Of a stretch of 64,000 bases of DNA, positions 1,252 to 17,623 are shown in pieces (the stretch's first letter is position 1; every line of letters starts with the position of its first letter). The translations under genes and the position numbers were made by a program. The stretch is taken from contig CAZXGI010000006.1 in NCBI GenBank assembly GCA_964639965.1, forward strand, positions 1,554-65,553. Reading direction: 5' to 3'. Under the pieces are notes generated by a model. That model was not told the DNA's origin. It worked only from the letters and a program-made list of their open reading frames with translations, and ran no database searches. The DNA is from an uncultured Rhodospirillaceae bacterium. Lineage in GTDB: Bacteria > Pseudomonadota > Alphaproteobacteria > Rhodospirillales > UBA2165.

Positions 1252-1279
1252 TTGTACTAAATTAGAATGGAACACTTAT

Positions 1280-2083
1280 ATGCCTAATAATAATCAAAGT
1301 GAACAAAGATTACTAACAAGCTTGTTGAACGGGATCACGGGAGGTAACATAAGTGTTGTAGATTTAACCATGACCCTTGACCGAAAAGTTCCTACCATCG
1401 TATTACCGCCGGAACTGGGCCAATCCTGGCCCTTTCGAATGGAAGAAATTTCTCGGTACGACGCCAGAGGGCCAGCCTCTTATTGGAATAATTTCTCCTG
1501 TGGTGAACATACTGGTACACATTTTGACGCCCCAATACATTGGATCTCGGGTAAGGATTTACCAAATAACGCAACTGATACAATCCCACCTGATATGTTT
1601 ATCGCACATGCTTGTGTTATCGATTGCTGCGCAGAAGCAAACGAAGATCCCGACTATCTTTTAACAGTCAAAGATGTCGAAATTTGGGAGGAAAAATATG
1701 GTACAATTCCGCCACGTTCTTGGTTGATTATGAGGACTGATTGGTCGCTTAAAAAGGACCCCGTCGAATATCTGAATTTAGATGATGAAGGATCGCATAC
1801 ACCGGGACCTCATCAGGATCTAATACCTTGGCTGATTGATGAACGCGATGTTGTTGGATTTGGATGCGAAGCGGTTGGCACAGATGCAGGGCAAGCCGCC
1901 CACTTTACTGTACCAATGCCTTGCCATCATCTGATGCATGGGAGAGGACGTTTTGGGCTCCCGGCGCTAACTAATCTAGATAAACTGCCACCGCATGGCT
2001 CAGTACTTATAACACCTCCTCTAAAGATACGCCAAGGTTCGGGAAGCCCTGTTAGGGTATTGGCACTGACGGAACAGACCTGA
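1280..2083 (+). CDS. Cyclase-family metal-dependent hydrolase (kynurenine formamidase-like)
   Basis: 267-aa ORF with the family signature HTGTHFDAPIHW (HxGTHxDxPxH). It lies 28 nt after the previous gene. Confidence 0.75.
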   Translation: MPNNNQSEQRLLTSLLNGITGGNISVVDLTMTLDRKVPTIVLPPELGQSWPFRMEEISRYDARGPASYWNNFSCGEHTGTHFDAPIHWISGKDLPNNATDTIPPDMFIAHACVIDCCAEANEDPDYLLTVKDVEIWEEKYGTIPPRSWLIMRTDWSLKKDPVEYLNLDDEGSHTPGPHQDLIPWLIDERDVVGFGCEAVGTDAGQAAHFTVPMPCHHLMHGRGRFGLPALTNLDKLPPHGSVLITPPLKIRQGSGSPVRVLALTEQT

Positions 2084-2090
2084 ATACCAA

Positions 2091-3659: not shown

Positions 3660-5066
3660 TCACTTAGTTATAAATGGAAGCCAAGTTGCGATATTTGGAA
3701 ATATCACTATCATTGCAACGAGAAATATTGCACACATCATAAATGGAATTGCCGCCATGCATATTTCGCTAAAACGCGTACCTGGTGGACACACGCCCTG
3801 CATCACAAATAAAAGAAGTCCAAACGGAGGTGTAGTGAAGCTTATTTCCATAGCCAGCAACATTATCACCCCAAACCATATAACCTGGCGGTCAGGTCCC
3901 ATGCCAAAATCAAAACCAGCCATAATGGGAAAAAATATTGGCACGGTTAGCAACATCATGGCCAATTGATCCATAAACATGCCAAGGAGTAAAAGTATAC
4001 CAAACATAATTAATAACATTACAAACCCAGACACTTCAAAACCCGTAACCCACTGAATAAGTTTTACACTTGATCCGGAGGCCGCAAGGACATTTGAAAA
4101 TAAACTAGATCCGAATAAGATCATCAATGCAATAATAGTAACCCTCCCGGCGCCCCACATGGACTTCCACAAGGCAACCTGAAATGTTGGCCAAAATACC
4201 CTAACTTTGGCTTTATCTCCCTGTAGCAAAGGAATAATAAAGAGGTATATCAGGGAAAGAATAACTACACCAAGAGACCCATATGCTGCAGATTCTGAAG
4301 GCGTTGCTACACCAAACATAATGAGCAAAATTACCATAAAGATGACGGAAACCATAGGAACCACATCGGTCAAAAAAGTCTTTATTCGTTTAGACCATTG
4401 GATATATTTAATTTCGTAAACAGGCGCTACTGAAGGGTCCAGCGTGGCTCGTAAATAAATTAGAACAGCATACATACAGGCGAGTATTAATCCAGGAACA
4501 ACTCCCGCAATCAGAAGTTTACCAATATCAATTTCAGCTAAAGTTCCAAGCAATACAGCTAGAGCAGAAGGTGGTATTAGCATTGCCAAACCACCTGTTC
4601 CAAGAATCGGGCCTATAGACATGCTTTTTTTATATCCACGCTCAGTCATCTCTGGAACCATCAAGGTACCCAAGAGAGCTGTTGACCCCATAGATGATCC
4701 AGATAATGTTGCAAAAGCAGTACCTCCGGCAACTGTGACATAAGATAAACGCGCTGGAGCACGGCCCATCAAATTCTCGATAGCATTGAACATACGTTTA
4801 GCTAAACCTGTGTGAAAAAATAGTTCACCCATTAATAAAAACATAGGTATTGGAACAATCGCAAAAATTGTCATATTTCCAAACGCATTATCAGTCAGTT
4901 GACCAATACTCGCAGACAAATTTGCATCGAGACCTTCGAATCGACCGTAAATAAAAAATGCTGCTATTGAGTTAACTGCTATGAAAGCAATGCCAACCGG
5001 AACACCTACAAACATCAAAATTAGGATCGAGCCCAACAATAAGGAAAGTATCCAATACCATTCCAT
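3660..5066 (-). CDS. TRAP transporter large permease (DctM family)
   Basis: 468-aa polytopic membrane protein. It overlaps the upstream small-permease gene by 1 nt, and its hydrophobic pattern and length are typical of DctM. Confidence 0.85.
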   Translation of the reverse strand: MEWYWILSLLLGSILILMFVGVPVGIAFIAVNSIAAFFIYGRFEGLDANLSASIGQLTDNAFGNMTIFAIVPIPMFLLMGELFFHTGLAKRMFNAIENLMGRAPARLSYVTVAGGTAFATLSGSSMGSTALLGTLMVPEMTERGYKKSMSIGPILGTGGLAMLIPPSALAVLLGTLAEIDIGKLLIAGVVPGLILACMYAVLIYLRATLDPSVAPVYEIKYIQWSKRIKTFLTDVVPMVSVIFMVILLIMFGVATPSESAAYGSLGVVILSLIYLFIIPLLQGDKAKVRVFWPTFQVALWKSMWGAGRVTIIALMILFGSSLFSNVLAASGSSVKLIQWVTGFEVSGFVMLLIMFGILLLLGMFMDQLAMMLLTVPIFFPIMAGFDFGMGPDRQVIWFGVIMLLAMEISFTTPPFGLLLFVMQGVCPPGTRFSEICMAAIPFMMCAIFLVAMIVIFPNIATWLPFITK

Positions 5067-5632
5067 TAATTGGATTCCCGTAAATCGCGCTGAGTGTCTT
5101 CCAACTCTATGCGGTCGCTAGCCACTCCGGCCAATCCGGTATGCATAGGTTCAGAAAGAACTGTAAAACGAAAAAATTCAACGGCCATCATAAAAAAACC
5201 AATAGGAAATGGAATTGTACTTACCCAAAGAGGAATATCAAACTGAGCACGCAGTTCATCAAAAGCCATTGTATCTTCAAATCGTTCGACAAACAGCAGC
5301 CATGTATACCAAGCCCACAACAAGCAAACCAATCCTGATACAAAACAGATAAATCTCGATAGGCTTCTTCTATGACGCTCGCTAAGAGCAGCGGTCAGAA
5401 TTTCTATATATACATGGCCGCGATTTCGGACCAACCACGGCGAGCCCAAGAAAAGAATGAAAATAAATCCATACTCAATAAATGGGAAGGTATATTGGTT
5501 ATAAGCAAGACCAAAAAAACGGAAAGCGCTCGCATAAACTATTGCGATCATAATGAGTGCAACATAGACTGCCGCGACACCCATAAATACCGCTAATACC
5601 TTCCCCCAAAATACGTCAATATTTTTCAACAT
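5066..5632 (-). CDS. TRAP transporter small permease (DctQ family)
   Basis: 188-aa protein of about four TM helices, positioned between the DctP-like and DctM-like genes. Confidence 0.7.
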   Translation of the reverse strand: MLKNIDVFWGKVLAVFMGVAAVYVALIMIAIVYASAFRFFGLAYNQYTFPFIEYGFIFILFLGSPWLVRNRGHVYIEILTAALSERHRRSLSRFICFVSGLVCLLWAWYTWLLFVERFEDTMAFDELRAQFDIPLWVSTIPFPIGFFMMAVEFFRFTVLSEPMHTGLAGVASDRIELEDTQRDLRESN

Positions 5633-5683
5633 AAAAAATTGCTAAACCAACAATTTTCTAAATAGGTTTAAATTAGTATATTC

Positions 5684-6697
5684 TTATTGCCGGAATGCTG
5701 CACGAAGTTTGGCAACATGGCCCGAGGGTCGACCGGATTTCTTAAGTCGACCCATCATTCGCGCATATGCGGAGTCGACTGCTAACTTGACATATTTTTT
5801 GCCACTTGGGACCGAATGAAACTTCATGCCGCCTTTTTTAAGCGCAGCTATTTCCTCTTTATGCAATTTTTTTAGAATTCCAGCATTAATTACTTCGTAT
5901 TCTTTGACGGTCGACTGGATAATATCCTTAGCTTTTGCACTTAACCCATTCCACTTCTTTAAATTAACAATCCAGCCAATATCGGTTTGGTAGAAATCTG
6001 GAACAATAGCATGCCTCAAGAATTTATCCCACTTTAGTCCTCGTAAGCCATAGGTGGCCCAAGCGGCAGAATCAACAACGCCTTTTTCTAAGGCAGCATA
6101 AACCTGAGTGGCGGGAAGATTATGTGTAGATGCCTTAAGTGCTTTTAAGAAAGCTCCATAAATCGGATTATCACGCATTTTCACTCCAGTAAAATCGGGT
6201 AGTCCGTTTGGCCCAAATTTTGGAGGATTTTTTAGATAAATACGGAACTTATTCCCGTTAGTCGTCCATCCCAAATATTTAATCTTCATATGCTTCTGCT
6301 GTAGTTTGTCGAGTATATCCATGCCCCCAGCCTGACGTGCTTGAGCTGCTGTAGAACTCGCAGTTGAAACAGCTTCCAACTCTGGGATACCGCGCGCATA
6401 AAACGCTGCGGGTATGCAATTCAAGTCTACACGCCCTTTACTTACTGCGGGAGCTTGCTGAAACATTTTAATCGAGTTAAAAGGAAGAATTTCAATTTGA
6501 ACGACGCCTTTGCCTCTTTTGTTTATTTCTGTGGCTAAAGCTTTGCAGTTTTTTGTATATATCAGAAAATCTGGAAAGGGGTAAACGAGCGTTAATTTAG
6601 TTTCTGCGCGTGCAGTCAACGGCACATTAACTAAAGCTGCAAGAAAACCACTCAAAGCTAACGCAACTAGGCCAATCGAAGTTTTAAATTTTTTCAT
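5684..6697 (-). CDS. TRAP transporter periplasmic solute-binding protein (DctP family)
   Basis: The ORF runs 5684-6727. The likely start is the internal MKKFKTSIGLVALALSGFLAA signal peptide (ATG at 6697, GGAG about 10 nt upstream). It sits next to DctQ/DctM. Confidence 0.75.
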   Translation of the reverse strand: MKKFKTSIGLVALALSGFLAALVNVPLTARAETKLTLVYPFPDFLIYTKNCKALATEINKRGKGVVQIEILPFNSIKMFQQAPAVSKGRVDLNCIPAAFYARGIPELEAVSTASSTAAQARQAGGMDILDKLQQKHMKIKYLGWTTNGNKFRIYLKNPPKFGPNGLPDFTGVKMRDNPIYGAFLKALKASTHNLPATQVYAALEKGVVDSAAWATYGLRGLKWDKFLRHAIVPDFYQTDIGWIVNLKKWNGLSAKAKDIIQSTVKEYEVINAGILKKLHKEEIAALKKGGMKFHSVPSGKKYVKLAVDSAYARMMGRLKKSGRPSGHVAKLRAAFRQ

Positions 6698-6782
6698 GAT
6701 AATTTCACTCCACTGATTAAAGTTCACTCGACAGAATTTACGGCTAGGACACTATAGCATAGCCGTTATCTTGTAAATTATT

Positions 6783-6801
6783 CTAAACAAAATTTGTTTA
6801 G
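6783..6801. promoter_or_regulatory. Perfect 9-1-9 inverted repeat CTAAACAAA-A-TTTGTTTAG, candidate operator upstream of the TRAP binding-protein gene
   Basis: Read directly from the sequence. It lies in the 116-nt spacer between the isochorismatase-like gene and the dctP-like gene. A nearby second inverted repeat, ACGGCTA-N13-TAGCCGT, sits around 6742-6768. Confidence 0.35.
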
Positions 6802-6843
6802 TGGCAAAATAACTGTAATACGGATAAACTTTACCCGTAATTC

Positions 6844-7527
6844 TTATAACAACTTTTCACAAATTTCATCAGAACTCTGAACGTCTACAAACATACCATA
6901 AAGCGCCTTAAGAGCATTCTCATGATAATCAATTGTCATTGCCGCCAATCCATCCATAACCATAATGGTTCGATAATTAAGCATCATTGCATCTCGCGCA
7001 GTAGCTTCACAACAAACGTTTGTAGCAACACCAGAAATCAATAAAGTATCAATGTTATGGGAATTCAGTTCCTTAGCAATATTAGAAGAACCAGGAATAA
7101 ACGCGCTAAATCGAGATTTCTTAACATATAAATCACTTTGCTCTGTATTTAATTCTGGCCAAATTTCATAACCCTCGTGATCCTCTGCTAACTCAGTATT
7201 TCTGCGCTCCCAATTTTCCGGTGTATATAGTTCACGATAAACGCCCCAATTCTCAGTCGCTTCAGGAGCAGCCGTAGTTTGTATCCAAATAACGACCCCA
7301 CCTTTTTCCCGCAAATCACTTGCCATCCTATTTATTACAGGGACGATTTCAATGGCCATTGGGCAAGCAGCCAAAAAACCTGATTTCATAAAATAATTCT
7401 GCATATCGACAACAACTAATGCTGTTTTCTTTGCAACAAAACTTTCATTAATATAACTTCGCCCCAAACGACTTTGGGACTGATTACGAAACCAACTTTC
7501 CAAACTTTGATGCTCGATATTATCCAT
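6844..7527 (-). CDS. Isochorismatase-family cysteine hydrolase (amidase type)
   Basis: ALVVVDMQNYF (Asp), VKKSRFSAF (Lys) and GVATNVCCEATARDA (nucleophile Cys) form the D-K-C triad. The ORF extends to 7563, but ATG 7527 gives a TAA-AGGA-ATG junction with the upstream gene. Confidence 0.75.
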   Translation of the reverse strand: MDNIEHQSLESWFRNQSQSRLGRSYINESFVAKKTALVVVDMQNYFMKSGFLAACPMAIEIVPVINRMASDLREKGGVVIWIQTTAAPEATENWGVYRELYTPENWERRNTELAEDHEGYEIWPELNTEQSDLYVKKSRFSAFIPGSSNIAKELNSHNIDTLLISGVATNVCCEATARDAMMLNYRTIMVMDGLAAMTIDYHENALKALYGMFVDVQSSDEICEKLL

Positions 7528-7531
7528 TCCT

Positions 7532-8125
7532 TTAGCCTTCCAATGAATTGAGTATTTCCTCACAAGTCCTGATTTCAGCTACTGTTCTCAAACCCTCAAT
7601 AGAAAGATCATGGACTTTCATATCAAAAGCTGCACATCCGTCCGATAATACCGTATTATGATAACCATGTACATGAGCATCCCGAACAGTTGACGCGACA
7701 CCACCATTTGTAACAATACCTCCATATATCAAATGGTTTATTCCAGCTTTTTTTAACACCCAATCCATACGGCTCATATAAAAAGCTGAATACGCTATTT
7801 TTTCTACTAACAAATCTGTTGGAGATAGTTCATTAACAAGCCTATGACCAAAGCTACCAGGAAGAAAGTCTCCCTCAGCAAGAAATGGGCGCAATTTTAG
7901 CAAATGATCGGCGATAAAAGGTTGACCATTCTTACCTGGCACCAAAGTAAAATGTGTTGAAACTATCCAACCTCCAGCCATCCGAACTGCATCTGCAACA
8001 GGTTTTAATTTTTTGGGTAATACTTTAATATAATCTGACGTTGCCCCGCCCCTAGCATAAGCACCTTCCGGATGAATGAAATCGTTCTGCATATCAATAA
8101 GAACAAGCGCTATTGTTTTACTCAT
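7532..8125 (-). CDS. Isochorismatase-family hydrolase paralog lacking the nucleophilic Cys
   Basis: ALVLIDMQNDF and EKIAYSAF are present, but the Cys position reads GIVTNGGVASTVRDA (Gly). The start overlaps the hyuA stop (TAATG). Confidence 0.75.
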   Translation of the reverse strand: MSKTIALVLIDMQNDFIHPEGAYARGGATSDYIKVLPKKLKPVADAVRMAGGWIVSTHFTLVPGKNGQPFIADHLLKLRPFLAEGDFLPGSFGHRLVNELSPTDLLVEKIAYSAFYMSRMDWVLKKAGINHLIYGGIVTNGGVASTVRDAHVHGYHNTVLSDGCAAFDMKVHDLSIEGLRTVAEIRTCEEILNSLEG

Positions 8126-10203
8126 TATACTTTCTTTCGCGAAATTATTAAATTGCCAAATTGATCAACCCTACCCTCTAGGTCGGGATCGATAAATATT
8201 GTTGTATCAGGTTGCTCGAGCAAAGCAGGACCCGGCACCCTCTGATCTATGGGAAGATTTAAACGATTATAAACGTCTGTTTGCCACCAATCTCCCTCAA
8301 ACCAAACTTCACGGGAATTAGTTTTAGCCTCTTCAACTGTATAATCACCGGATGGACCCAAAATTGACAAATCAAACTTTGGTCGACGGCCTATCACCGT
8401 TACCTTAAGGTTGAGAACCCGTATTCCAATATTATGCAGCAACCGCCCATAAGTCCTTTTATAGGTTTCTTCAAAAGCTGTCCGAATAACGTCTGAATTC
8501 AAGTCACGTTTTATATCTTCTAGTTCGATGGGAAGTTTAACAGCGACAGTGTGGGTTTGTCCTAAATAAAGCATATCCAATTCGATTACGCTCTCTAAAC
8601 GGTCAAATAGCACCTCAGCTTCAGCCAAACGTTTTTGGCCATCCTCTGCTGTCTTTTTTATTTCAGATGCTAGTTTTTTTATATCGAGATTCTCAAATCC
8701 GGTATTAATTGTGTGAACCCTATCAAACCGCATATCAGCGATGACACAACCTAAAGCACTTGTTACGCCCGGATATCGGGGTACCAGAGCTTTTGATAAG
8801 CCAACATCTTTTATAAGCGCACCGGCATGCAGTGCTCCACCCCCGCCAAAGGGCATAGCAATAAATTTTTCAGGATCATGTCCGCGTTCCACGGAAACCA
8901 AACGGATGGCGCCTGCCATTTTTGAATTAGCAACTTTAATAATCGCTTCAGCAGCCTCCATGACCTGGATCTTTAATGGTTCAGCCACATGTATTTTTAT
9001 TGCACTTTTTGCCGCGTCAACGTCTAAGCGAGTCAACTTACCACCGATCGGTTTATCACCATTTATCCTCCCTAGGACAACGTTAGCATCTGTCACCGTT
9101 GGACGATCATTACCTTGCCCATAACAAACAGGCCCGGGATCAGATCCAGCACTTTCAGGCCCCACTTGTAACAAGCCACCACGATCAACAGAGGCTATTG
9201 AGCCACCGCCTGCACCAATTGTTGTGATTTCAATCATTGGAGTGCGGATTACTAATCCAAAGTCAACTGCCGTTTGAGCGGCAAGCGCACTCACGCCATC
9301 AGCAACAAGGGACACATCAAAACTTGTCCCTCCCATATCGCATGTTATAAGGTTTGGAAATCCGGAACTCTTCCCAATATAAGCCCCAGCAATAACTCCA
9401 GCTGCAGGGCCAGATAATGCGGTTCGCACCGGAAACGATCTGGCCATATTAACGGACATTACACCGCCATTAGATTGCACAATTAGGACTTCACCTGCAA
9501 ATCCGCCTTTCCGCAAGCCCCCTTCAAGCCGTTCGAGATAATCGCCAATCGGAGGCTGCAAATAAGCATTCAATGTTGCTGTCGAACATCGTTCAAATTC
9601 ACGAATTTCCGGAAGAATTCCCGACGAAGATGTGATATGGTCGTTCGGCCATATCTCCCTTAATATTTCAATCGCTAATTTTTCATTAGCATCGTTAGCG
9701 TAGCTATTCATAAAAAACACACAAACAGATTCAGCCCCTTGAGCTAATAATTTTGCTGTTGCTGACTTCAAGTCACTTGGTTCAAGTTTAGTAAAAAGTG
9801 TACCATCAGCCAAAACTCTTTCATCAACCTCCACCCGCAATTCACGCGACACAATTGGATCAAACATCCCCCAAAGACCCCATGTCTCTGGTCGATCACG
9901 TCTCCGCATCTCAATTACATCGCGGAATCCCCGCGTTGTTATAATCCCAGTCTTGGCTCCTTTGCGTTCGAGAAGTGAATTAGTGCCAACAGTGGTACCA
10001 TGAATTATTAAAGATATTTCTGAGAGCCTTTTTAGATGTTGTGCTATCCCCTCTTGGATCCCAATAGATTGATCATTTCGAGTTGAAGGCACCTTCGCAA
10101 CATCACACGAACCATCATCTTCATTAAGGAAAAACACATCCGTGAAAGTGCCACCGACATCAACCCCGACTACCGTTCTAGATTTTTTTTGTATTTCGGC
10201 CAT
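8125..10203 (-). CDS. hyuA: Hydantoinase/oxoprolinase A subunit (HyuA family, ATP-dependent)
   Basis: 692 aa. N-terminal VGVDVGGTFTDV (ASKHA fold) and DMGGTSFDV, with a length typical of HyuA, N-methylhydantoinase A or OplA. Confidence 0.85.
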   Translation of the reverse strand: MAEIQKKSRTVVGVDVGGTFTDVFFLNEDDGSCDVAKVPSTRNDQSIGIQEGIAQHLKRLSEISLIIHGTTVGTNSLLERKGAKTGIITTRGFRDVIEMRRRDRPETWGLWGMFDPIVSRELRVEVDERVLADGTLFTKLEPSDLKSATAKLLAQGAESVCVFFMNSYANDANEKLAIEILREIWPNDHITSSSGILPEIREFERCSTATLNAYLQPPIGDYLERLEGGLRKGGFAGEVLIVQSNGGVMSVNMARSFPVRTALSGPAAGVIAGAYIGKSSGFPNLITCDMGGTSFDVSLVADGVSALAAQTAVDFGLVIRTPMIEITTIGAGGGSIASVDRGGLLQVGPESAGSDPGPVCYGQGNDRPTVTDANVVLGRINGDKPIGGKLTRLDVDAAKSAIKIHVAEPLKIQVMEAAEAIIKVANSKMAGAIRLVSVERGHDPEKFIAMPFGGGGALHAGALIKDVGLSKALVPRYPGVTSALGCVIADMRFDRVHTINTGFENLDIKKLASEIKKTAEDGQKRLAEAEVLFDRLESVIELDMLYLGQTHTVAVKLPIELEDIKRDLNSDVIRTAFEETYKRTYGRLLHNIGIRVLNLKVTVIGRRPKFDLSILGPSGDYTVEEAKTNSREVWFEGDWWQTDVYNRLNLPIDQRVPGPALLEQPDTTIFIDPDLEGRVDQFGNLIISRKKV

Positions 10204-10205
10204 GT

Positions 10206-11942
10206 TTAGCTCGTTTCGCGTAATCTATTAGTTTCTTTTTGATCAAGAATACCGTCATCAGATACAGAACATTTATAGTTTTCATATGCTGATTTAGCCG
10301 TTACATAACCAAGCCGCACATCTTCGGCCACAAGCTTTGGATCTCGCTCACAAGCATCACCGTAACCTCCGCCACCCGGCGTCTCTAGGCGAATGCGCTG
10401 ACCCTTTTCTAATTGTAAGCCAACCATCTTAGAAACCATGGGCGGCGATTCTTCACTATCGCCACCGACTGGATAAATAAACTTATTTCGAGATCCACTC
10501 TCACCCCCTATAACGCCGGGCGGACCAAATTTACCTCGCTCACCAAACAAAAAAGCATCCGCTTTTTCTTCAAGTAATTCAATCTCATAAATTGCACCAC
10601 AACCACCACGACTCCTGCCTGGTCCACCGCTATCTGGTCGTAATGCCCACTGGGTAAAGCGAATTGGGTAGGCGGCTTCCAAAATTTCTAAAGGGGGGAT
10701 GGTAGCTGTTGAAATTGGTGCATTACCATGATTAAGGCCGTCACCGTTCGGATGTCCGCCGTGGCCACCCCCAAAAAACGAAAACAAAACCCAGCGGGCC
10801 CCATTCTTGCGATAACCTGCCATTGATAACGCATTGATTGTTCCATAGGCACATCCGTTGCTTATTTCTGGAGCAACCTTAGAAATCGCCTGAAACATCA
10901 CATCGATAACACGGAGGATTGTCTCGGTATAGCCACCGACAGGCTTCGGTCGGCTAACACTTAACAGACTATCATTTGGGATAACAAAATCAATCGGATC
11001 CAACACACCAGCATTCGCAGGTACCTCGCGAAAAATATGCTTAAGCGCAACATAACAAGACGCGACACATGTAGAACGCGAGATGTTTACTGGTCCGTCA
11101 CATGCAGTCGATGTCTTTGAAAAATCTAAAGTCATTCGATTATTGACAATCACGATATCAAGACCAATTTTTAATGATTCATCAATAATACCGTCATTAT
11201 CTAGCCAGTCTTCTGCCGAATAAGTACCATTTGGAAGATCACTAATGTAACTCTTCATCAACTTGGCGGCACTTTCATTCAATTCAACCAAAGCTGATGT
11301 AATTTTCTCTTCACCATATTCTTCAAGCAAATCCGTTAACCTCTGATCACCAAGATCAAGGGCGCTAACCTGCCCATTTAGATCCCCATAAAGACTTCCT
11401 GGTAGGCGCGAATTTGATTGTAAGATTGCAACAATATCCTCGTTGAGGATGCCAGAGCTATAAAGTAATACTGGCGGAATTAGCATACCTTCCTGATAAC
11501 ATTCCGTTGCTACTGGATTATAATTACCTGGTACATTTCCACCAACGTCATGCCAATGGCCAACAGACGCCAAAAAGCAAAAAACCTGTCCGCCATGAAA
11601 GAAAGGTCTTACAAGTTTAAAATCTGAAAGGTGGGTTCCACCTTCGTAAGGATCATTGAATACAAAAACATCACCAGGATTAAGGACAATTTTCTCCTGT
11701 TCGACTTTATCAATCACCATTTTTACCGCAAATGACATCGCACCAACAAAAACTGGTAAACCAGACTTGCCCTGAATTAAGGTCTCCCCCGTTTTAGCAT
11801 GGTATAGCCCATGGCTAGCATCGTGGGCCTCCGCTATTATCGGATTAAAGGCACTGCGGAAAAGTGTGGCATCCATTTCATCCGCAATCTGTTCCAACCT
11901 TCCTTTAAGAACGGCCAATATCACCGGATCCATTTTTTGCAT
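10206..11942 (-). CDS. hyuB: Hydantoinase B/oxoprolinase subunit (HyuB family)
   Basis: The ORF extends to 11975. MQKMDPVILAVLKGRLEQIADEM matches the usual HyuB N-terminus, and ATG 11942 gives a TGA-G-ATG junction with the upstream gene. It sits 2 nt before hyuA. Confidence 0.85.
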   Translation of the reverse strand: MQKMDPVILAVLKGRLEQIADEMDATLFRSAFNPIIAEAHDASHGLYHAKTGETLIQGKSGLPVFVGAMSFAVKMVIDKVEQEKIVLNPGDVFVFNDPYEGGTHLSDFKLVRPFFHGGQVFCFLASVGHWHDVGGNVPGNYNPVATECYQEGMLIPPVLLYSSGILNEDIVAILQSNSRLPGSLYGDLNGQVSALDLGDQRLTDLLEEYGEEKITSALVELNESAAKLMKSYISDLPNGTYSAEDWLDNDGIIDESLKIGLDIVIVNNRMTLDFSKTSTACDGPVNISRSTCVASCYVALKHIFREVPANAGVLDPIDFVIPNDSLLSVSRPKPVGGYTETILRVIDVMFQAISKVAPEISNGCAYGTINALSMAGYRKNGARWVLFSFFGGGHGGHPNGDGLNHGNAPISTATIPPLEILEAAYPIRFTQWALRPDSGGPGRSRGGCGAIYEIELLEEKADAFLFGERGKFGPPGVIGGESGSRNKFIYPVGGDSEESPPMVSKMVGLQLEKGQRIRLETPGGGGYGDACERDPKLVAEDVRLGYVTAKSAYENYKCSVSDDGILDQKETNRLRETS

Positions 11943-11943
11943 C

Positions 11944-12828
11944 TCAATCATCGCCATTAGTGTAACGATTGCCAACTTGGAGCATTTCTTTAGTTCCTAA
12001 AAGTTCGTTTAACTCATCGAAATCAAACATTTGGGCTTGATGCTGTATCGTTGAGCCATGCCTCAATAACGAATTGAAGTAATTCTCCGCAGCATAAGCA
12101 AGCGCTCGAACTAGGGCGCCGGGGAATATTACAATCGAAAATCCCTTCTCTTCTAGTTCTAAAGCTGGCGCCATCGGAGTTTTTCCACCTTCAACCATAT
12201 TTATTAGTAATGGAATTTTGTCACCAAACTGTTCAACAACACGCGCAATTTGTTCCGCACTTTGCATAGCTTCAATAAATAAGACATCTGCTCCTGCTTC
12301 AACATAACCAACAGCCCGATCAATTGCACGCTCATAGCCCTCAACGGCAATTGCATCCGTCCTTGCAATGATCATTGTATTTTCGTCTTTGCGAGCATCA
12401 AGTGCGGCTTTGACCTTACCATTCATCTCATCTGTAGTTATCAGCACTTTACCATCAAGATGCCCACAGCGTTTCGGTGAAGACTGATCTTCTAATTGTA
12501 TACCTGAAGCGCCGTTTCTTTCGAGAAGCGTAACAGTTCTTTGCACATTTAAAGCATTACCAAATCCCGTGTCGGCATCAACGATTAAAGGCAAATTGAC
12601 CCTTTCGCGGATTGTGCCGACTATTGTCGCGAGTTCATCCAAAGTGACTAAACCAATATCAGGCCGAGCAAGCTTCGTATACGCTATTGAAGCTCCAGAA
12701 AGATAGAGCGCTTCAAAACCTGCACGCTCACCCATCATGGCACCAAAGGCATCGTAAATTCCTGGCGTTAATAATATTCGATCCTGTTTTATTCGGTTTC
12801 TTAAAATTTTTTGTGGCGACATAGCCAT
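11944..12828 (-). CDS. Isocitrate lyase/PEP mutase family enzyme (methylisocitrate or 2,3-dimethylmalate lyase-like)
   Basis: 294 aa. Contains the family signature EDQSSPKRCGHLDGK (K-[KR]-C-G-H). Size is like PrpB or Dml. Confidence 0.8.
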   Translation of the reverse strand: MAMSPQKILRNRIKQDRILLTPGIYDAFGAMMGERAGFEALYLSGASIAYTKLARPDIGLVTLDELATIVGTIRERVNLPLIVDADTGFGNALNVQRTVTLLERNGASGIQLEDQSSPKRCGHLDGKVLITTDEMNGKVKAALDARKDENTMIIARTDAIAVEGYERAIDRAVGYVEAGADVLFIEAMQSAEQIARVVEQFGDKIPLLINMVEGGKTPMAPALELEEKGFSIVIFPGALVRALAYAAENYFNSLLRHGSTIQHQAQMFDFDELNELLGTKEMLQVGNRYTNGDD

Positions 12829-12837
12829 TCCTTTTTG

Positions 12838-13323
12838 TTAGGTCTGGTTCAAAGTTCTTTTAAGATGGGGCACAAGTCCACCTGCTTCGATTAAAGCTAA
12901 TAGATTTGCTGGCACCGCTTCACCAGCTAGATCTATACCTGTAGAAAGATTATGTATTTTGCCAGACTTGAGATTTAGCGTTATTTTATTTCCGGCATTA
13001 ATTGGTTCAATATCATTTAATTTAATGGCAGGCAGTCCAAGATTAAAGGCGTTACGATAAAAAATACCGCTAAACGACTCCGCGATCACAGCGGCTACAC
13101 CCAAAGTTTTCAGCACTTGAGCCGCTTGCTCACGACTAGAACCCATGCCAAAATTTTTCCCGGCGACTACAAAATCCCCCTCAACCACTGAACCCGCAAA
13201 TAAAGGGTCGACTGTTTCTAAGCAATGACTTGCGAGTTCGTCTAGTGGCAGCTTAATATAAACACCAGGTACCAATAAATCCGTATTAATTTCATCCCCA
13301 AATTTCCATACTTGGCCAGACAT
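12838..13323 (-). CDS. Aconitase-family dehydratase small subunit (short LeuD/HacB/DmdB type)
   Basis: 161 aa with GKNFGMGSSREQA (the GxGSSRE swivel-domain motif). The start overlaps the large-subunit stop (TAATG). Confidence 0.8.
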   Translation of the reverse strand: MSGQVWKFGDEINTDLLVPGVYIKLPLDELASHCLETVDPLFAGSVVEGDFVVAGKNFGMGSSREQAAQVLKTLGVAAVIAESFSGIFYRNAFNLGLPAIKLNDIEPINAGNKITLNLKSGKIHNLSTGIDLAGEAVPANLLALIEAGGLVPHLKRTLNQT

Positions 13324-14588
13324 TATAACAAAATATCTCTAGGATCTGAAATATATCCCTTGATAGCACTTGCTGATACTGTATAGGGAGAAGCTAAATA
13401 CACCTTAGAGCTACTAGCTCCCATTCTTCCTTGAAAGTTCCGGGCTGTTGAAGCTAAGCAAACTTCTTCTTCTGCTAAGACACCTATCCCATAACCTGCA
13501 CAAGCACCGCACCCTGGAGGCAGTAAACTTGCCCCGGCTTCCAATAACACTTCAATTATGCCCTGCTTCGTTGCTAAACTTAAAACATGTGAAGAAGCTG
13601 GAGCAATTGTGAGTCGTTTACCCTCAGCAATTTTATAACCTCTTAAAACAGACGCCGCCATTTCTAAATCGTTCAGTTTGGCACCAGTGCAAGCCCCAAT
13701 GTAAAATTGGTCAATTTTATCCTGACCAACCTCTCCAACTGGAACAGCGTTTGCCGGACTATGTGGTGGGGCAACTTGAGGTGCCAAACCTGCAGCATCA
13801 AATTCGTGAGTAACCTTATAATTTGCATCTGGATCACTTTTGTACTTTCTCCAATCCCCCGGTTCACCACCGACCGACCTAACGTAAGCTACAGTAATCT
13901 CATCTGGCTCGATAAGACCAGATTGTGCGCCAAGTTCGGCGCTCATATTACTCAAAGTCATACGCTCAAAAATATTTAGCTTCTCAATCGTGTCACCACA
14001 GTAGAGAATTGATTGATAATCACCACCATTCATTCCGAGTGTGGCGCACATCTTAAGCGCCATATCCTTAGCAGCAACGCCAATACCCATATTACCCGAC
14101 CACCTGATCCGGATAGTCTCAGGAATTTTTATCCAAGTTTGCCCTGTAACAAGAATACCAAGCATATCAGTGGCACCAACTCCAAACATGTAGCTGCCAA
14201 ATGCGCCTCCGGTAGGAGAATGACTGTCGCCACCCACGGCAAACATGCCTGGAGACAAATGACCGTTTTCTGGCACCACAATATGACAGATACCTTTTTG
14301 ATCATAAAAATTTTTAACGTTATATTCTGAGGCCCACTCTCTCGTTAACTTCAGAATGCTAGCACTTTCAGAATCGGTACAAGGCGCAAAATGATCAGAC
14401 ACCAAGACAACCTTCCCGGGATCCCAAACGCCTGCACCTAACTGCTCCATAGTCGACTTAATACGTCGAGGGCCACCGCTATCATGGATCATAGCTAAAT
14501 CAACGTTGCAGGTGACGACTTCACCAGGCTTAACAAACTTTTGATTAGCTGCTTTTGCTATAATTTTTTCTGCGATCGTTTGACCCAT
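13323..14588 (-). CDS. Aconitase-family dehydratase large subunit (short LeuC/HacA/DmdA type)
   Basis: 421 aa. MIHDSGGP and GGDSHSPTGGAFG are present, and the Fe-S cluster cysteines appear in YIGACTG and PGCGACAG. Confidence 0.8.
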   Translation of the reverse strand: MGQTIAEKIIAKAANQKFVKPGEVVTCNVDLAMIHDSGGPRRIKSTMEQLGAGVWDPGKVVLVSDHFAPCTDSESASILKLTREWASEYNVKNFYDQKGICHIVVPENGHLSPGMFAVGGDSHSPTGGAFGSYMFGVGATDMLGILVTGQTWIKIPETIRIRWSGNMGIGVAAKDMALKMCATLGMNGGDYQSILYCGDTIEKLNIFERMTLSNMSAELGAQSGLIEPDEITVAYVRSVGGEPGDWRKYKSDPDANYKVTHEFDAAGLAPQVAPPHSPANAVPVGEVGQDKIDQFYIGACTGAKLNDLEMAASVLRGYKIAEGKRLTIAPASSHVLSLATKQGIIEVLLEAGASLLPPGCGACAGYGIGVLAEEEVCLASTARNFQGRMGASSSKVYLASPYTVSASAIKGYISDPRDILL

Positions 14589-14721
14589 AATTTGCTCGTT
14601 AAATCACTTTATTCTTGATTTCTTATTACTTTAAACGTTGTGTTGATCTATTAATGTAACATTTGTATATTCGGATCAATAAATTAAACCAGAAATAAAT
14701 AATTCCAAGGGAGGAAGTGAT

Positions 14722-15729
14722 ATGAATAAAACAATCCTAGCAGCAGCGGCAAGCGTAATTATAATGCAATCTACTAGCGTATTTGCAACAGGTCCAATCA
14801 AAGTTGCATCATTTGTTTCCCCAAAAAGCATGGGGGTCACAAGAGTTATAAAACCTTGGATGGCCAATGTTAAGGCCGATGTTGGAGGTAAGGTTGAACT
14901 AAAGGGCTATTGGGGTGGATCACTCGGTAAAAGTCCGGTAAAGCAATATGAATTGGTAAAGAATGGTGTAGCCGATTTAGCGTGGATTTTGCCTGGTTAT
15001 ACCTCGGGACAATTTCCAGAAATGCAAATAGTTGAACTTCCATTTTTATTAAATACGGCTCTTGAGGCCTCTCTAGTTATTCAACGATTACATGACGCGG
15101 GCTTTAAAACAGGTCTAGGTCAAGTTAAATTGATAGGAGCTTGGGCCTCTGCACCAAATTTGTTATTCCTAAACAAACCTGTAAAGAAAATCTCTGATTT
15201 GAAAAATCTAAAAATTAGGAATGCTGGTTCCGTAGGGGGATATTGGCTGGGAAAAATCGGAGCTATCCCACAAACCATGAGCGCACCAAAAATGACCGTC
15301 GCTCTTAACCGGAAAACAATTGACGGAGGTCAACAAGGTTGGACAGGAATGAGGACTTTTAAAGCAATGCGCCTTGTTACACATGTCATGGATCTGCCTT
15401 TAGGTGCCATTCCCTTCTTCTTAGGAATGAACAAGAAGAAATGGGATGGACTTCCTAAAGATGTTCAAGCAGCATTCTTAAAACACGGCAGCGAAAAAAT
15501 CGCTCGGAATGGAGGCGCTGCTTATGGGGATGCCACCTTAAAGATTATAAAATCAAATCCACAGGCAAAAAAACTTACGATTGTCAAACCTAGTGGAGCA
15601 GAATTCAATAAAACGGTTAAAGACGCCAAAGCTTCTGTACACAAATGGTGGATAAATAAAACAAAAAATGGCCAAGCTGTTTACGATAAAGCCGTTAAGA
15701 TTATAGCGGACGTTCGAAAGAACGGATAA
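14722..15729 (+). CDS. TRAP transporter solute-binding protein (DctP family)
   Basis: 335 aa with an N-terminal signal peptide MNKTILAAAASVIIMQSTSVFA and a strong RBS GGGAGGAAG. DctQ and DctM genes follow. Confidence 0.75.
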   Translation: MNKTILAAAASVIIMQSTSVFATGPIKVASFVSPKSMGVTRVIKPWMANVKADVGGKVELKGYWGGSLGKSPVKQYELVKNGVADLAWILPGYTSGQFPEMQIVELPFLLNTALEASLVIQRLHDAGFKTGLGQVKLIGAWASAPNLLFLNKPVKKISDLKNLKIRNAGSVGGYWLGKIGAIPQTMSAPKMTVALNRKTIDGGQQGWTGMRTFKAMRLVTHVMDLPLGAIPFFLGMNKKKWDGLPKDVQAAFLKHGSEKIARNGGAAYGDATLKIIKSNPQAKKLTIVKPSGAEFNKTVKDAKASVHKWWINKTKNGQAVYDKAVKIIADVRKNG

Positions 15730-15750
15730 ACTATCATTTGGTAGAAAAAA

Positions 15751-16287
15751 TTGGATCAATTTGAAACAACAAGCAGGCGGCTTAGCGAATACCTAAAGCT
15801 GGTCGCCTGCGTTGGCTTTACTGGGCTTGTCGCAGTTGCCCTATTAACTATGGTTGATGGTTTAGGGCGGTGGCTGGCGCTCCCTCGCATTCCGGGGTTC
15901 AATGATTATGCTCAAATTTCTTATGCTATCGTAATCTCATCTTGTTTTCCCTCATTACTTCTCAGAGATCAAAATGTAACTATCCGTTTTCTCGGAAGAG
16001 CGTTTAAGGGTCGAACAAACTATTGGCTGGAAGTTTTTGGTAATTTGTTTACCCTATTCTTTTTCTCGATACTTGTTTGGCAATTCTATCTACTAACGAT
16101 TGACCTTCAGGTTAATAATAGAACGTCCCCGACTATAGAGTTCCCTATTGCACCTTGGTGGTGGATCATCTCATTTATAATGACGATTACCGTTCCGGTA
16201 CAGGTGATCGTTTTCGCGGATAGTGTCTACAGTGCCATTCGTAATCAACCCAGCCGCCTTCCCAAAGAAGAAACGGAGAGCGTTTAA
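15751..16287 (+). CDS. TRAP transporter small permease (DctQ family)
   Basis: 178-aa membrane protein with a TTG start, lying between the DctP and DctM genes. Confidence 0.65.
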   Translation: MDQFETTSRRLSEYLKLVACVGFTGLVAVALLTMVDGLGRWLALPRIPGFNDYAQISYAIVISSCFPSLLLRDQNVTIRFLGRAFKGRTNYWLEVFGNLFTLFFFSILVWQFYLLTIDLQVNNRTSPTIEFPIAPWWWIISFIMTITVPVQVIVFADSVYSAIRNQPSRLPKEETESV

Positions 16288-17591
16288 TGGATCCTATTGT
16301 CATAGGTGCCTTAGGTCTTGGTGCGATGTTTGTTCTTATCGCCCTCCATGTACCTATCGGTGTAGCTATGGGCATCACCGGAGTAGCTTCAGTAGGCTTT
16401 ATGATTGGCTGGGAACCAGCCCTTACGCTTCTCGGCACCGAGCCATCGGCAAAGATTGAAGATGAAGGGCTGGCTGTTGTCGCTCTTTTTCTGTTGATGG
16501 GCGCCTTTGCAACGGAAGCCGGTGTCTCGGCAGATATGTATAGGCTCGCTTATGCAATGGTTGGTCACTTTCGTGGGGGTCTAGCTATGTCAACAATTGG
16601 CGGATGTGCGGGTTTTGGAGCTATTTGCGGCTCCTCTATTGCCACCACAGCAACCATGGCAAAAATCGCATTGCCCGAAATGATAGATCGCAACTATAAG
16701 CGAACATTAGCGAGTGGATGTATCGCAGCAGGTGGCACCCTAGGAATGCTGGTCCCACCTTCCGTCGTAATGATTATTTATGGAATTCTAACTGAAGAAA
16801 GCATTATTGCATTATTTGCTGCAGCTATTTTTCCTGGGGCCATTGCAACCGTCCTTTACTGCATTACGATCAGTATTATTGTGCGACTAAAACCTGATTC
16901 AGGTCCAGCTGGTGAACGACTTCCATGGAAAGAAAAATTGTCTGTATTGATCGCCTCATGGCGTTTCTTGCTAATAGCGATCCTCGTTTCGGGCGGAATT
17001 TATACCGGAATTTTTACAATCACAGAAGCAGCATCAGTCGGTGCAAGTCTTGCTTTCATTTTTGCTATATTCAATGGCATGAGAATGGAGGGTTTTTTAA
17101 ATTGCCTTTCAACGACAGCAGCAAATACTGGAATGATTTTTGTTATCATTATGGGCGCATCAGTCTTTAGCTACTTCATCACATTATCTGGTTTACCTGA
17201 TGCATCAGTCCAGTTCATCAAAAGCTTAAACGCCTCAGATTTCATAGTTCTTTTCATGCTGATGGTATTATATCTCATTCTTGGTAGTATTTTCGATACT
17301 GTTGCAGCTATGGTGATTACGTTACCTTTCGTTTATCCAGTCATCATGGATATGGGTTACGATCCCATATGGTGGGGCGTTATTAACGTAATGATAATGG
17401 AGATCGGCATGATCACACCCCCCATTGGGATCAATGTATTTGTACTTAACGGCATGTCAAAAGATCTTAACCTAAAAACAATTTATGCGGGAATTTTTCC
17501 ATTCTTCATGACAGATATCGTACGCTTGGCTATATGTCTAATATTTCCAGCCACCGCGCTCTGGCTGCCAAAGGCTTGGGGATTAATGTAG
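16287..17591 (+). CDS. TRAP transporter large permease (DctM family)
   Basis: 434-aa polytopic membrane protein with a 1-nt overlap with the DctQ gene. Confidence 0.85.
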   Translation: MDPIVIGALGLGAMFVLIALHVPIGVAMGITGVASVGFMIGWEPALTLLGTEPSAKIEDEGLAVVALFLLMGAFATEAGVSADMYRLAYAMVGHFRGGLAMSTIGGCAGFGAICGSSIATTATMAKIALPEMIDRNYKRTLASGCIAAGGTLGMLVPPSVVMIIYGILTEESIIALFAAAIFPGAIATVLYCITISIIVRLKPDSGPAGERLPWKEKLSVLIASWRFLLIAILVSGGIYTGIFTITEAASVGASLAFIFAIFNGMRMEGFLNCLSTTAANTGMIFVIIMGASVFSYFITLSGLPDASVQFIKSLNASDFIVLFMLMVLYLILGSIFDTVAAMVITLPFVYPVIMDMGYDPIWWGVINVMIMEIGMITPPIGINVFVLNGMSKDLNLKTIYAGIFPFFMTDIVRLAICLIFPATALWLPKAWGLM

Positions 17592-17623
17592 AGAAAATCA
17601 TTGGTTGTGGGGTGTCTTTCTAG

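Follow-up and report, generated by a model that had tools for sequence, protein, structure and literature searches.

A window of 64 000 nucleotides from an uncultured Rhodospirillaceae bacterium (contig CAZXGI010000006.1 of GenBank assembly GCA_964639965.1; the whole stretch analysed is called the window below) carries seven head-to-tail open reading frames (ORFs) on its minus strand, at 6844–14588. They join a LeuCD-type hydratase, a lyase of the isocitrate lyase/phosphoenolpyruvate mutase (ICL/PEPM) superfamily, an ATP-dependent cyclic amidohydrolase (HyuA and HyuB) and two isochorismatase-like proteins, here called iso1 and iso2. All of these parts belong to known families; their combination is conserved, widespread and, as far as could be found, undescribed. 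The conserved core consists of six genes plus a variable seventh; the intermediate is probably of the tricarboxylate type, with an optional entry step catalysed by a flavin adenine dinucleotide (FAD) enzyme. The cluster may serve to degrade a small N-heterocycle with a carboxyl group, for which a cyclic imide or lactam of the maleimide/succinimide type bearing a carboxyalkyl substituent is the most likely candidate, a reading that we hold with about even confidence.

Gene order and conservation of the cluster

The ORFs of the window and their translations were assigned with Pfam and NCBIfam profiles. The seven genes are, from first to last:

13323–14588, minus strand: LeuC-like large subunit (421 residues; PF00330), an archaeal-type LeuC/HacA/DmdA-like [4Fe-4S] hydro-lyase
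12838–13323, minus strand: LeuD/DmdB-family small subunit (161 residues; PF00694, TIGR02087)
11944–12828, minus strand: C–C lyase of the ICL/PEPM superfamily, a 2-methylisocitrate lyase paralogue (294 residues; PF13714, PF00463)
10206–11957, minus strand: HyuB-type subunit, the metal-dependent hydrolysis subunit of an ATP-dependent cyclic amidohydrolase (583 residues; PF02538)
8125–10203, minus strand: HyuA-type ATP-binding subunit (692 residues; PF05378, PF01968, PF19278)
7532–8125, minus strand: iso1, an isochorismatase-fold protein without the catalytic Cys and the signature gene of the cluster (197 residues; PF00857)
6844–7527, minus strand: iso2, a canonical isochorismatase-family cysteine hydrolase and lineage-specific seventh gene (227 residues; PF00857)

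Coordinates, Pfam and NCBIfam agree on the arrangement and families proposed in an earlier sequence-only reading of this DNA, and the six junctions that it described were all read exactly so. The start and stop codons overlap as TAATG between the leuC-like and leuD-like genes and again between hyuA and iso1; 9 nucleotides separate the leuD-like gene from the lyase gene, and the remaining junctions are TGA-G-ATG (lyase/hyuB), TAA-AC-ATG (hyuB/hyuA, 2 nucleotides apart) and TAA-AGGA-ATG (iso1/iso2). With all junctions within 0–9 nucleotides the genes form one tightly coupled unit, as had been claimed; iso1 is translationally coupled to hyuA via its TAATG, and one transcript spanning the seven genes is likely from the junctions. 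The likely start of hyuB (11957) is the ATG after TGA-G, the TTG at 11975 given by the ORF lister being further upstream, and that of iso2 (7527) is the ATG after TAA-AGGA. Public gene calls on identical marine metagenome contigs contain the same seven genes, with a HyuB of 583 residues and an iso2 of 227 residues.

As the most distinctive protein, iso1 was used as the search probe and one genome per species was scanned. Relatives were found in at least 592 species-representative genomes, with 63–100% identity within the iso1 family among the best 120 database clusters. The best 80 of these loci were fetched (numbered L), and the loci of Azospirillum (L090) and Sulfitobacter (L091) were compared as well. 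Synteny was counted by tblastn with the window proteins and by ORF clustering in the 67 loci for which 4.2 kb or more of sequence upstream of iso1 is available. Of these, 63 have HyuA next to iso1, 63 contain HyuB and 59 contain the ICL-type lyase; archaeal-type LeuC orthologues (54–81% identity) were present in the same cluster at 37. The carriers among the fetched loci are mostly Alphaproteobacteria (Rhodospirillales, Rhodobacterales and Hyphomicrobiales) with a few Gammaproteobacteria, and include cultured Denitrobaculum, Hwanghaeella, Stappia, Roseibium, Nitratireductor and Bradyrhizobium. The same gene order was found on the chromosome of Nisaea acidiphila, and the order is kept in cultured Nisaea, Denitrobaculum, Stappia, Roseibium, Nitratireductor, Azospirillum and Sulfitobacter, the cluster being located on large plasmids or chromids in the last two. 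The closest relatives of the window locus among the matches listed are uncultured Rhodospirillales (L010), with 68–89% protein identity. The linkage recurs in dozens of genera and is far beyond chance. In the neighbourhood check, to which the sequence-only reading had tied its own refutation, HyuB–HyuA–iso1 together with an ICL-like lyase and a hydratase were recovered across Rhodospirillales, Rhodobacterales, Hyphomicrobiales and some Gammaproteobacteria.

Hardly any credence can therefore be given to a chance juxtaposition in which ordinary leucine and methylcitrate genes stand beside a plain 5-oxoprolinase or hydantoinase operon. All of the families are common, and the Prokaryotic Genome Annotation Pipeline labels some orthologues 'leuC/leuD'. 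The equivalog scores of the LeuCD, ICL and HyuAB proteins are nevertheless all below the curated cut-offs, so that the earlier view of these as something other than leucine, methylcitrate or 5-oxoprolinase genes is upheld; the same linkage is kept in different orders and also where the cluster lies on a plasmid or chromid, neither prpC nor leuA/leuB is found nearby and the junctions are short. Synteny effectively refutes this explanation. A literature search on the combination of modules (hydantoinase, isochorismatase, isopropylmalate-type hydratase and lyase) found no paper describing the cluster, in line with the earlier statement that no described pathway unites them in one operon.

The claim of a seven-gene unit holds for the six conserved genes; iso2 was found in the closest relatives only (L007–L010 and L012 among the related loci). 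Relatives of iso2 at 52–63% identity lie in unrelated neighbourhoods and give no functional clue. The gene is a lineage-specific addition outside the conserved unit. The list of modules likewise stands as given, except that most genomes add one that the window is without: an FAD_binding_2 protein of about 465 residues, which directly follows iso1 in 42 of the 74 loci with enough downstream sequence. Its scores are 145 bits for TcuA and 218 bits for flavocytochrome c, all below the family cut-offs, and L-aspartate oxidase is a far more distant relative than soluble fumarate reductase/flavocytochrome c and TcuA are. Loci of a single Rhodospirillales clade, that of the window, differ in this respect: L011 has the FAD gene, and L013 and L019 show neither it nor iso2. 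The FAD step therefore appears to be an optional way into the pathway. An apparent iso1–FAD fusion in L034 (an ORF of 724 residues) was rejected as an artefact of long out-of-frame ORFs in DNA of high G+C content.

The hydratase slot is filled by three non-orthologous types: archaeal-type LeuCD, bacterial-type LeuCD (Azospirillum, Sulfitobacter, L025, L033 and L082) and an MmgE/PrpD-family protein located exactly before the lyase (L038, L045, L050 and L081). All three kinds of hydratase act on citrate-, aconitate- or alkylmalate-type acids. That these enzymes replace one another argues strongly, from context, for an intermediate of this class. The transporter varies as well. The DctP, DctQ and DctM genes of a tripartite ATP-independent periplasmic (TRAP) transporter keep the position that they have in the window in L010 and L012, whereas a Liv-type ATP-binding cassette (ABC) transporter takes this role elsewhere; a DctP1-like TRAP system lies downstream on the opposite strand in L011 and L013, and the cluster has DctP-like neighbours in L021, L027 and L037. 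Such a constant set of enzymes, combined with transporters of varying type, marks an operon for the catabolism of a solute taken up from outside. Many of the related loci also have a GntR/HutC-type regulator. The window has adjacent DctP, DctQ and DctM genes and is thus assigned a TRAP transporter, the nearest solved binding protein of which (4MNC) matches at only 3e-31; transfer of a ligand from the nearest solved TRAP and Liv-type binding proteins was rejected as too distant.

Some loci carry further genes. On a Sulfitobacter pontiacus plasmid (L091, 7672–8238) a tautomerase–SnoaL fusion heads a hyuB–hyuA–iso1–ICL–FAD operon, and no counterpart was found in the other 80 loci. Polysaccharide-deacetylase-family genes, a family that we take to include the metal-independent allantoinase PuuE, lie near HyuBA–iso1–FAD–PrpD-like versions of the cluster in L034, L036, L043, L050 and L063. 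A few genomes have an iso1 orthologue (59–61% identity) without HyuAB, among them L066 and L057, in which a maleate-isomerase-like gene is also present. In L066 (Roseomonas) iso1 is beside an ORF (10655–12958) with an N-terminus that by eye resembles a molybdenum subunit of the xanthine dehydrogenase family, and in L057 it is beside an ORF that by eye is Amidohydro_3-like. These contexts hint at N-heterocycle hydroxylation pathways that may share the iso1 step.

Active-site features of the encoded proteins

HyuA contains the domains Hydant_A_N, Hydantoinase_A and Hydant_A_C (166, 308 and 56 bits) and HyuB contains Hydantoinase_B (534 bits), all over the Pfam cut-offs; the two genes side by side place the pair among the hydantoinase/oxoprolinase ATP-dependent cyclic amidohydrolases. 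The ASKHA ATP motifs and the Asp/His/Asp/His metal site were used as defined in PMC8453981. The ATP motifs of HyuA are intact (DVGGTFTD at residue 15, DMGGT at 289 and GSDPGP at 353). Candidate metal ligands of HyuB occur in AHD (44–46), GGTHLSD (106–112) and GHWHD (133–137), roughly at the positions of the HyuB-type tetrad Asp41/His99/Asp102/His124 (PMC8453981), a correspondence that is by position and not by alignment to CapB; in the alignment of HyuB with 7HK5, GGTHLSD pairs up and GHWHD faces GQLID, a stretch without His. Among solved proteins, HyuB is closest to N-methylhydantoinase (7HK5, 5e-72) and caprolactamase (6YRA_B, 6e-67), the matches to acetophenone carboxylase (5e-30) and acetone carboxylase (1e-16) being far weaker. 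Caprolactamase models are the best NCBIfam matches of both subunits. Assignment as the caprolactamase CapA/CapB was rejected with scores of 538 (alpha) and 286 bits (beta) against an equivalog cut-off of 1000 each, and assignment as an acetone or acetophenone carboxylase was rejected on the length of HyuB (583 residues against 684–776), the weak E-values and the lack of a gamma-like gene in the window.

HyuAB might nonetheless be an ATP-dependent carboxylase that turns a keto compound into a di- or tricarboxylate for LeuCD and the ICL-type lyase, with no nitrogen ring involved. The superfamily is the same, caprolactamase is itself bicarbonate-dependent (PMC8453981) and a polycarboxylate would be yielded directly for the lower pathway. 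Besides the length of HyuB and the E-values of 5e-30 and 1e-16 against those for the hydrolases, the preference of NCBIfam for lactamase models, the missing gamma subunit and the one or two genes of the amidohydrolase fold that are always attached argue against this explanation, which is very improbable.

Of the two isochorismatase-family hydrolases that the sequence-only reading had taken to be of the Cys type, only iso2 is. It has the full triad (D41, K136/137 and C172 in the motif TNVCC) and reaches none of the equivalog cut-offs (RutB, 65 against 378; BiuH, 53 against 370). In iso1, D11 and K109 are kept and Gly142 (TNGGV) occupies the Cys position in an alignment to RutB (Cys166 in TNVCV) and to the TrtA Cys; the motif GIVTNGGV occurs in 82 of 85 family members. 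Judged by these residues, iso1 is not a cysteine hydrolase. An AlphaFold2 model of iso1 (predicted local distance difference test score 83.5) has TrtA, RutB and BiuH as its nearest folds, with template-modelling scores of ∼0.7. The sequence matches RutB and TrtA at ∼1e-14 and EntB/VibB weakly, at 3e-6 to 6e-6; no match to NicF was obtained at 1e-5. The model places iso1 nearest to the amide/ureide hydrolases, as whose derived member it would thus have lost covalent catalysis. True isochorismatases are Asp/Lys general-acid hydrolases. The pattern of iso1, with Asp and Lys kept and Cys replaced, is shared with these enzymes, but the EntB/VibB matches are weak and the gene context is catabolic. 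An Asp/Lys general-acid hydrolase, an amidase with another mechanism or a noncatalytic partner of HyuAB are possible roles from the sequence.

These features bear on two other routes. In one, resembling creatinine degradation, HyuAB would open a 5-substituted hydantoin or a dihydropyrimidine to an N-carbamoyl acid, the isochorismatase-family proteins would decarbamoylate it and the resulting amino-dicarboxylate would be oxidised and degraded by the FAD, LeuCD and ICL-type enzymes. HyuAB followed by an isochorismatase-family carbamoylase is the known N-methylhydantoin pathway. Among solved proteins HyuB most resembles an N-methylhydantoinase, the structures nearest to iso1 are those of the ureide hydrolases TrtA, BiuH and RutB, iso2 matches N-carbamoylsarcosine amidase weakly and a few loci add the PuuE-like polysaccharide-deacetylase-family genes. 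Decarbamoylation would, however, give an amino acid that LeuCD and the lyase could not use without deamination, and the cluster has no conserved gene for an aminotransferase or ammonia-lyase; iso1 is without the Cys needed by all known carbamoyl/ureide hydrolases of the fold, the FAD protein is nearer to flavocytochrome c/TcuA than to L-aspartate oxidase, and the hydratase and lyase are left unexplained. We consider such a route unlikely.

In the other route HyuAB would open an unsaturated lactam (a pyrrolinone- or tetrahydro-oxopyridine-carboxylate) to an enamine, which iso1 would hydrolyse with its Asp and Lys to ammonia and an oxo-acid, by acid-catalysed chemistry such as true isochorismatases perform on vinyl ethers; the oxo-acid would then pass to the FAD enzyme, hydratase and lyase. 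The retention of Asp11 and Lys109 with Gly at the Cys site fits this proposal, the same Asp/Lys pattern without Cys being found in the true isochorismatases PhzD and EntB, and so does the tautomerase–SnoaL fusion at the head of the Sulfitobacter hyuB operon. IaaCE, a hydantoinase-like hydrolase of Aromatoleum aromaticum, is presumably part of anaerobic indoleacetate degradation. It counts among the HyuAB homologues, and ATP dependence is the rule for thermodynamically stable lactams (PMC8453981). By sequence and fold, however, iso1 groups with the amide/ureide hydrolases and not with EntB/PhzD, the tautomerase is confined to one lineage, and there is no evident way from the oxo-acid to a substrate for a succinate-type dehydrogenase or an aconitase-type hydratase, all of which leaves the enamine route improbable too.

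The LeuC-like protein (PF00330, 295 bits) passes only subfamily models (NF001614, 528 bits) and is under the equivalog cut-offs of LEU2 (TIGR02083, 407 against 611), leuC (TIGR00170, 224 against 560) and HacA (426 against 550). The LeuD-like protein passes TIGR02087 ('LeuD/DmdB family', 173 bits) and misses leuD (TIGR02084, 136 against a cut-off of 246). All three Fe–S ligands (Cys300, Cys360 and Cys363) are present in the LeuC-like protein and GSSRE is found at residue 61 of the LeuD-like protein; with PF00330 and PF00694 on adjacent overlapping genes the pair is a heterodimer of the aconitase superfamily. Identification as the 3-isopropylmalate dehydratase of leucine biosynthesis was rejected, since all equivalog scores are too low and the recognition loop of the LeuD-like protein is YIKL (22–25) and not of the hydrophobic YLVY type. 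This loop was aligned with YLRT of the Methanocaldococcus jannaschii homoaconitase small subunit (2PKP) and with YLVY of isopropylmalate/citramalate isomerase (3VBA); its third position is Lys or Arg in 34 of 37 LeuD orthologues of the cluster. According to PMC7308503, which cites Jeyakanthan et al. (2010), the small-subunit loop sets substrate preference in this class of enzymes. A basic residue where homoaconitase has the Arg that reads the distal carboxylate suggests, by analogy, that the window enzyme also reads such a group and that its substrate would be a tricarboxylate and not a simple alkyl-maleate.

The lyase (PF13714, 157 bits) has an invariant KRCGH loop (119–123) and conserved DADTG, EDQ and F-x-EA motifs; with its PEP_mutase domain, K(K/R)CGH loop and Mg2+ ligands it belongs to the ICL/PEPM superfamily. 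Its nearest solved relatives are 2-methylisocitrate lyases (E ∼1e-57), followed by petal death protein and 2,3-dimethylmalate lyase, and its scores against prpB are 300 (TIGR02317, cut-off 354) and 261 (NF008455, cut-off 353). The lyase family (48 sequences) was compared with Escherichia coli PrpB using the published PrpB numbering. The catalytic and metal-binding residues are kept, as are the positions of Phe186 and Pro236, which we take to form the pocket for the pyruvate methyl group in PrpB structures. Invariant changes are T212V, F214G, L237G/S238G(A), G47A/G48S and R126L, and a new Lys/Arg is found at position 216 (A216K/R). A literature search for the roles of PrpB pocket residues found no paper. 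An ordinary PrpB was rejected: both scores are below the cut-offs, neither prpC nor acnD is present in the window or the related loci and the pocket substitutions are invariant. By analogy with PrpB, these changes are compatible with release of pyruvate and of an acid larger than, or bound differently from, succinate.

Predicted pathway, substrate and known counterparts

The order proposed in the sequence-only reading (ring opening, removal of nitrogen, hydration and retro-aldol cleavage to pyruvate) fits the new evidence and remains the best model. Uptake would occur via the TRAP transporter in the window, the probable importer of the carboxylated substrate, or via the Liv-type ABC transporter in other genomes. 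HyuA would phosphorylate the ring amide with ATP and HyuB would open the ring hydrolytically, by the mechanism proposed for caprolactamase and oxoprolinase (PMC8453981). The remaining nitrogen would leave as ammonia through iso1, with iso2 assisting or adding to this step in the window lineage; of the earlier assignment of deamidation to isochorismatase-like enzymes, the part concerning iso2 agrees with its triad, while iso1 is not a Cys-type amidase. The product would be an aconitate-like substituted maleate, formed in most genomes by the TcuA-like FAD dehydrogenase from a saturated succinate-type analogue; as the window is without the FAD enzyme, its substrate should already be unsaturated. 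The LeuCD-type Fe–S hydratase, or one of its substitutes, would then add water, and the PrpB-like lyase would split the product into pyruvate and a dicarboxylic acid. An intermediate of the maleate type had been expected from the outset and is retained, whereas the simple alkyl substituent is not, the LeuD loop and the lyase pocket suggesting a tricarboxylate. In these analogies the lower half would correspond to the methylcitrate cycle or to the branch of nicotinate fermentation that handles dimethylmaleate, and the upper half to the N-methylhydantoinase and lactamase systems.

Two hydrolytic steps yield a dicarboxylate only from a cyclic imide, and a substrate of the maleimide/succinimide type is therefore favoured. 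Ogawa et al. in 1995 are said to have found that N-methylhydantoinase hydrolyses succinimide and glutarimide with ATP. Several points weigh on the other side. The main weakness is that iso1, the most conserved gene, is without the nucleophile used by every characterised amidase of its fold, so that the deamidation step is mechanistically unexplained. To our knowledge, the known cyclic imidases need no ATP, and an ATP-dependent enzyme therefore makes an imide a less likely substrate than a lactam or hydantoin; from a simple lactam, in turn, an amine would arise that no hydrolase can remove. Searches of the window by tblastn gave neither an FAD dehydrogenase nor a GntR homologue, and the operon has no regulator gene next to it. 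The readings of the LeuD loop and of the lyase pocket are analogies from other enzymes and in part from remembered structures.

A more specific and distinctly doubtful proposal is that the cluster mineralises monopyrrolic oxidation products of chlorophyll, haem or bilins, namely hematinic acid (a methyl/carboxyethyl-maleimide) and, where the FAD enzyme occurs, its dihydro (succinimide) analogues. Hematinic acid is formed by oxidation of chlorophyll, haem and bilirubin and is present in leaves and, by the literature cited in the same source, in lake sediments (PMC7318184). Ring opening and removal of nitrogen would give 2-methyl-cis-homoaconitate, which after hydration by LeuCD would be cleaved by the lyase to pyruvate and glutarate; iso1, without Cys, would perform a new kind of deamidation or an enamine hydrolysis. 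Speculatively, this substrate fits every clue. It would account for the Lys/Arg in the loop of LeuD and, in the lyase, for a methyl pocket that is retained beside an acid pocket that is larger and newly basic; it would also explain why the FAD enzyme is optional, why the transporters are of the carboxylate type and why the cluster is widely distributed among Alphaproteobacteria of sea and soil.

The proposed imide or lactam pathway resembles several known systems in part. With the creatinine/N-methylhydantoin pathway it shares an ATP-dependent HyuA/HyuB ring opener and an isochorismatase-fold protein (there N-carbamoylsarcosine amidase); sarcosine oxidase follows there, in contrast to an Fe–S hydratase and a C–C lyase here, iso1 is without the catalytic Cys, and the window HyuAB are only distantly related to the characterised enzymes and miss the equivalog cut-offs. 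ATP-dependent lactamases (CapAB, Pseudomonas putida lactamase/OplBA and 5-oxoprolinase) are similar in subunit architecture, ATP motifs and candidate metal residues at similar positions, but the window proteins reach about half (alpha) and under one third (beta) of the equivalog cut-offs. The genomic partners also differ, being hydratase, lyase and iso1 in the window and, reportedly, aminotransferase and dehydrogenase genes for caprolactam degradation.

In the lower part, the window lyase is a close paralogue of PrpB of the methylcitrate cycle, a PrpD-family hydratase occurs in some related genomes and pyruvate plus a dicarboxylate are the predicted products; the cluster is, however, without methylcitrate synthase, would be fed by a ring-opening module and not by propionyl-CoA (coenzyme A), and has a changed lyase pocket. 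The nicotinate fermentation of Eubacterium barkeri (DmdAB and Dml) has in common with the window an archaeal-type short LeuCD and an ICL/PEPM lyase, with a substituted maleate derived from an N-heterocycle. Its genes for molybdenum hydroxylase, enamidase and B12 mutase are absent from the window cluster and the Lys/Arg in the window LeuD loop suggests a tricarboxylate and not dimethylmaleate. In tricarballylate utilisation TcuA forms cis-aconitate; the FAD_binding_2 protein of the related clusters is TcuA-like and lies beside an aconitase-family hydratase, but these clusters are without TcuB or TcuC, the scores are below the cut-offs and the window is without the FAD gene. The maleamate branch of aerobic nicotinate degradation (NicF and NicE) pairs an isochorismatase-fold protein with a maleate-isomerase-like protein, as do several related loci and the vicinity of the operon in the window lineage; NicF uses Asp-Lys-Cys, whereas iso1 is without Cys, and no NicC/NicX/NicD set is present in the cluster.

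If the model holds, the cluster represents an undescribed and very widespread catabolic pathway, present in at least 592 species-representative genomes that span abundant marine Rhodospirillales and Rhodobacterales as well as soil- and plant-associated Azospirillum and Bradyrhizobium, and serving small N-heterocyclic carboxylates of hitherto unclear microbial fate. It would give functions to six subfamilies that are now labelled generically or wrongly ('leuC/leuD', 'cysteine hydrolase' and 'hydantoinase/oxoprolinase family') and would show a role for an isochorismatase-fold protein without its nucleophile. Should the substrate be a tetrapyrrole-derived maleimide, the pathway would supply a missing step in how carbon and nitrogen from the breakdown of chlorophyll and haem are cycled. 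As cultured carriers exist, the question is directly testable.

Surrounding genes and regulation in the window

The following features adjoin the seven genes or may be associated with them:

3660–6727, minus strand: TRAP transporter genes, DctP at 5684–6727, DctQ at 5066–5632 and DctM at 3660–5066 (PF03480, PF04290 and PF06808)
6728–6843: spacer of 116 nucleotides between iso2 and dctP
6783–6801: perfect 9-1-9 palindrome CTAAACAAA-T-TTTGTTTAG (19 bp, CTAAACAAATTTTGTTTAG), a candidate operator in the iso2–dctP spacer upstream of dctP, unique in the window
14589–14721: AT-rich divergent intergenic region between the leuC-like gene and a second TRAP operon (14722–17591, plus strand)
21911–23128, minus strand: FAD_binding_3 monooxygenase (Pfam), possibly associated
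23224–23994, plus strand: maleate-isomerase-like protein of the Asp/Glu-racemase family (Pfam), possibly associated

The position of the TRAP transporter behind a spacer of 116 nucleotides matches the earlier description. The palindrome, of which no second copy was found in the window, overlaps a promoter-like site on the minus strand (TTGCCA-16-TAGAAT, 6807–6780), so that transcription of the TRAP genes may be regulated from a separate promoter. Counts of terminators and promoters were no higher than in shuffled controls, and the palindrome alone stands out. An Rfam scan of positions 1–26000 with E up to 0.1 gave no riboswitch or RNA element.

The best solved relatives of the protein encoded at 23224–23994 are maleate cis-trans isomerases (6.5e-11). 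Homologues of this protein and of the monooxygenase are located directly upstream of leuC in L010 and L019, and Amdase-like (maleate-isomerase-like) genes lie directly after or beside iso1 in L057, L061, L066 and L088. From its gene context, this recurrent neighbour points to maleate-type chemistry. Beside the maleate-isomerase-like gene, a plus-strand gene at 24004–24996 encodes a protein of 330 residues with a 4Fe-4S dicluster domain, which scores 99 bits against the reductive-dehalogenase model TIGR02486 (cut-off 160); the arrangement is kept in L010 with 80% identity.

A large cluster for cobalamin biosynthesis (CobW, CobB/CbiA-type amidotransferases, CbiD, a CbiG–methylase fusion, CbiX, CobD, CobQ and CobN) is found at 38433–59849, some 24 kb away from the operon. 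A corrin tetrapyrrole is thus among the products of this organism, which with regard to the maleimide idea is probably a coincidence.

Divergent from the operon on the plus strand (14722–19333), the second DctPQM TRAP system is followed by a thiamine diphosphate (ThDP) enzyme, which passes the uncharacterised equivalog NF006203 with 671 bits (cut-off 456). Together with an Amidohydro_2 protein and an AMP-binding ligase, this block is insertion-like between the monooxygenase and leuC relative to L010. Downstream of the first TRAP genes, at 10–3635 on the plus strand, are a fusion of DUF35 (ChsH2 zinc-ribbon/OB) with a short-chain dehydrogenase/reductase, a putative cyclase (PF04199) and an AMP-binding ligase. 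All three are kept in place in L012 and the ligase also in L010; judged by their families, these proteins may handle the acid product as a CoA ester.

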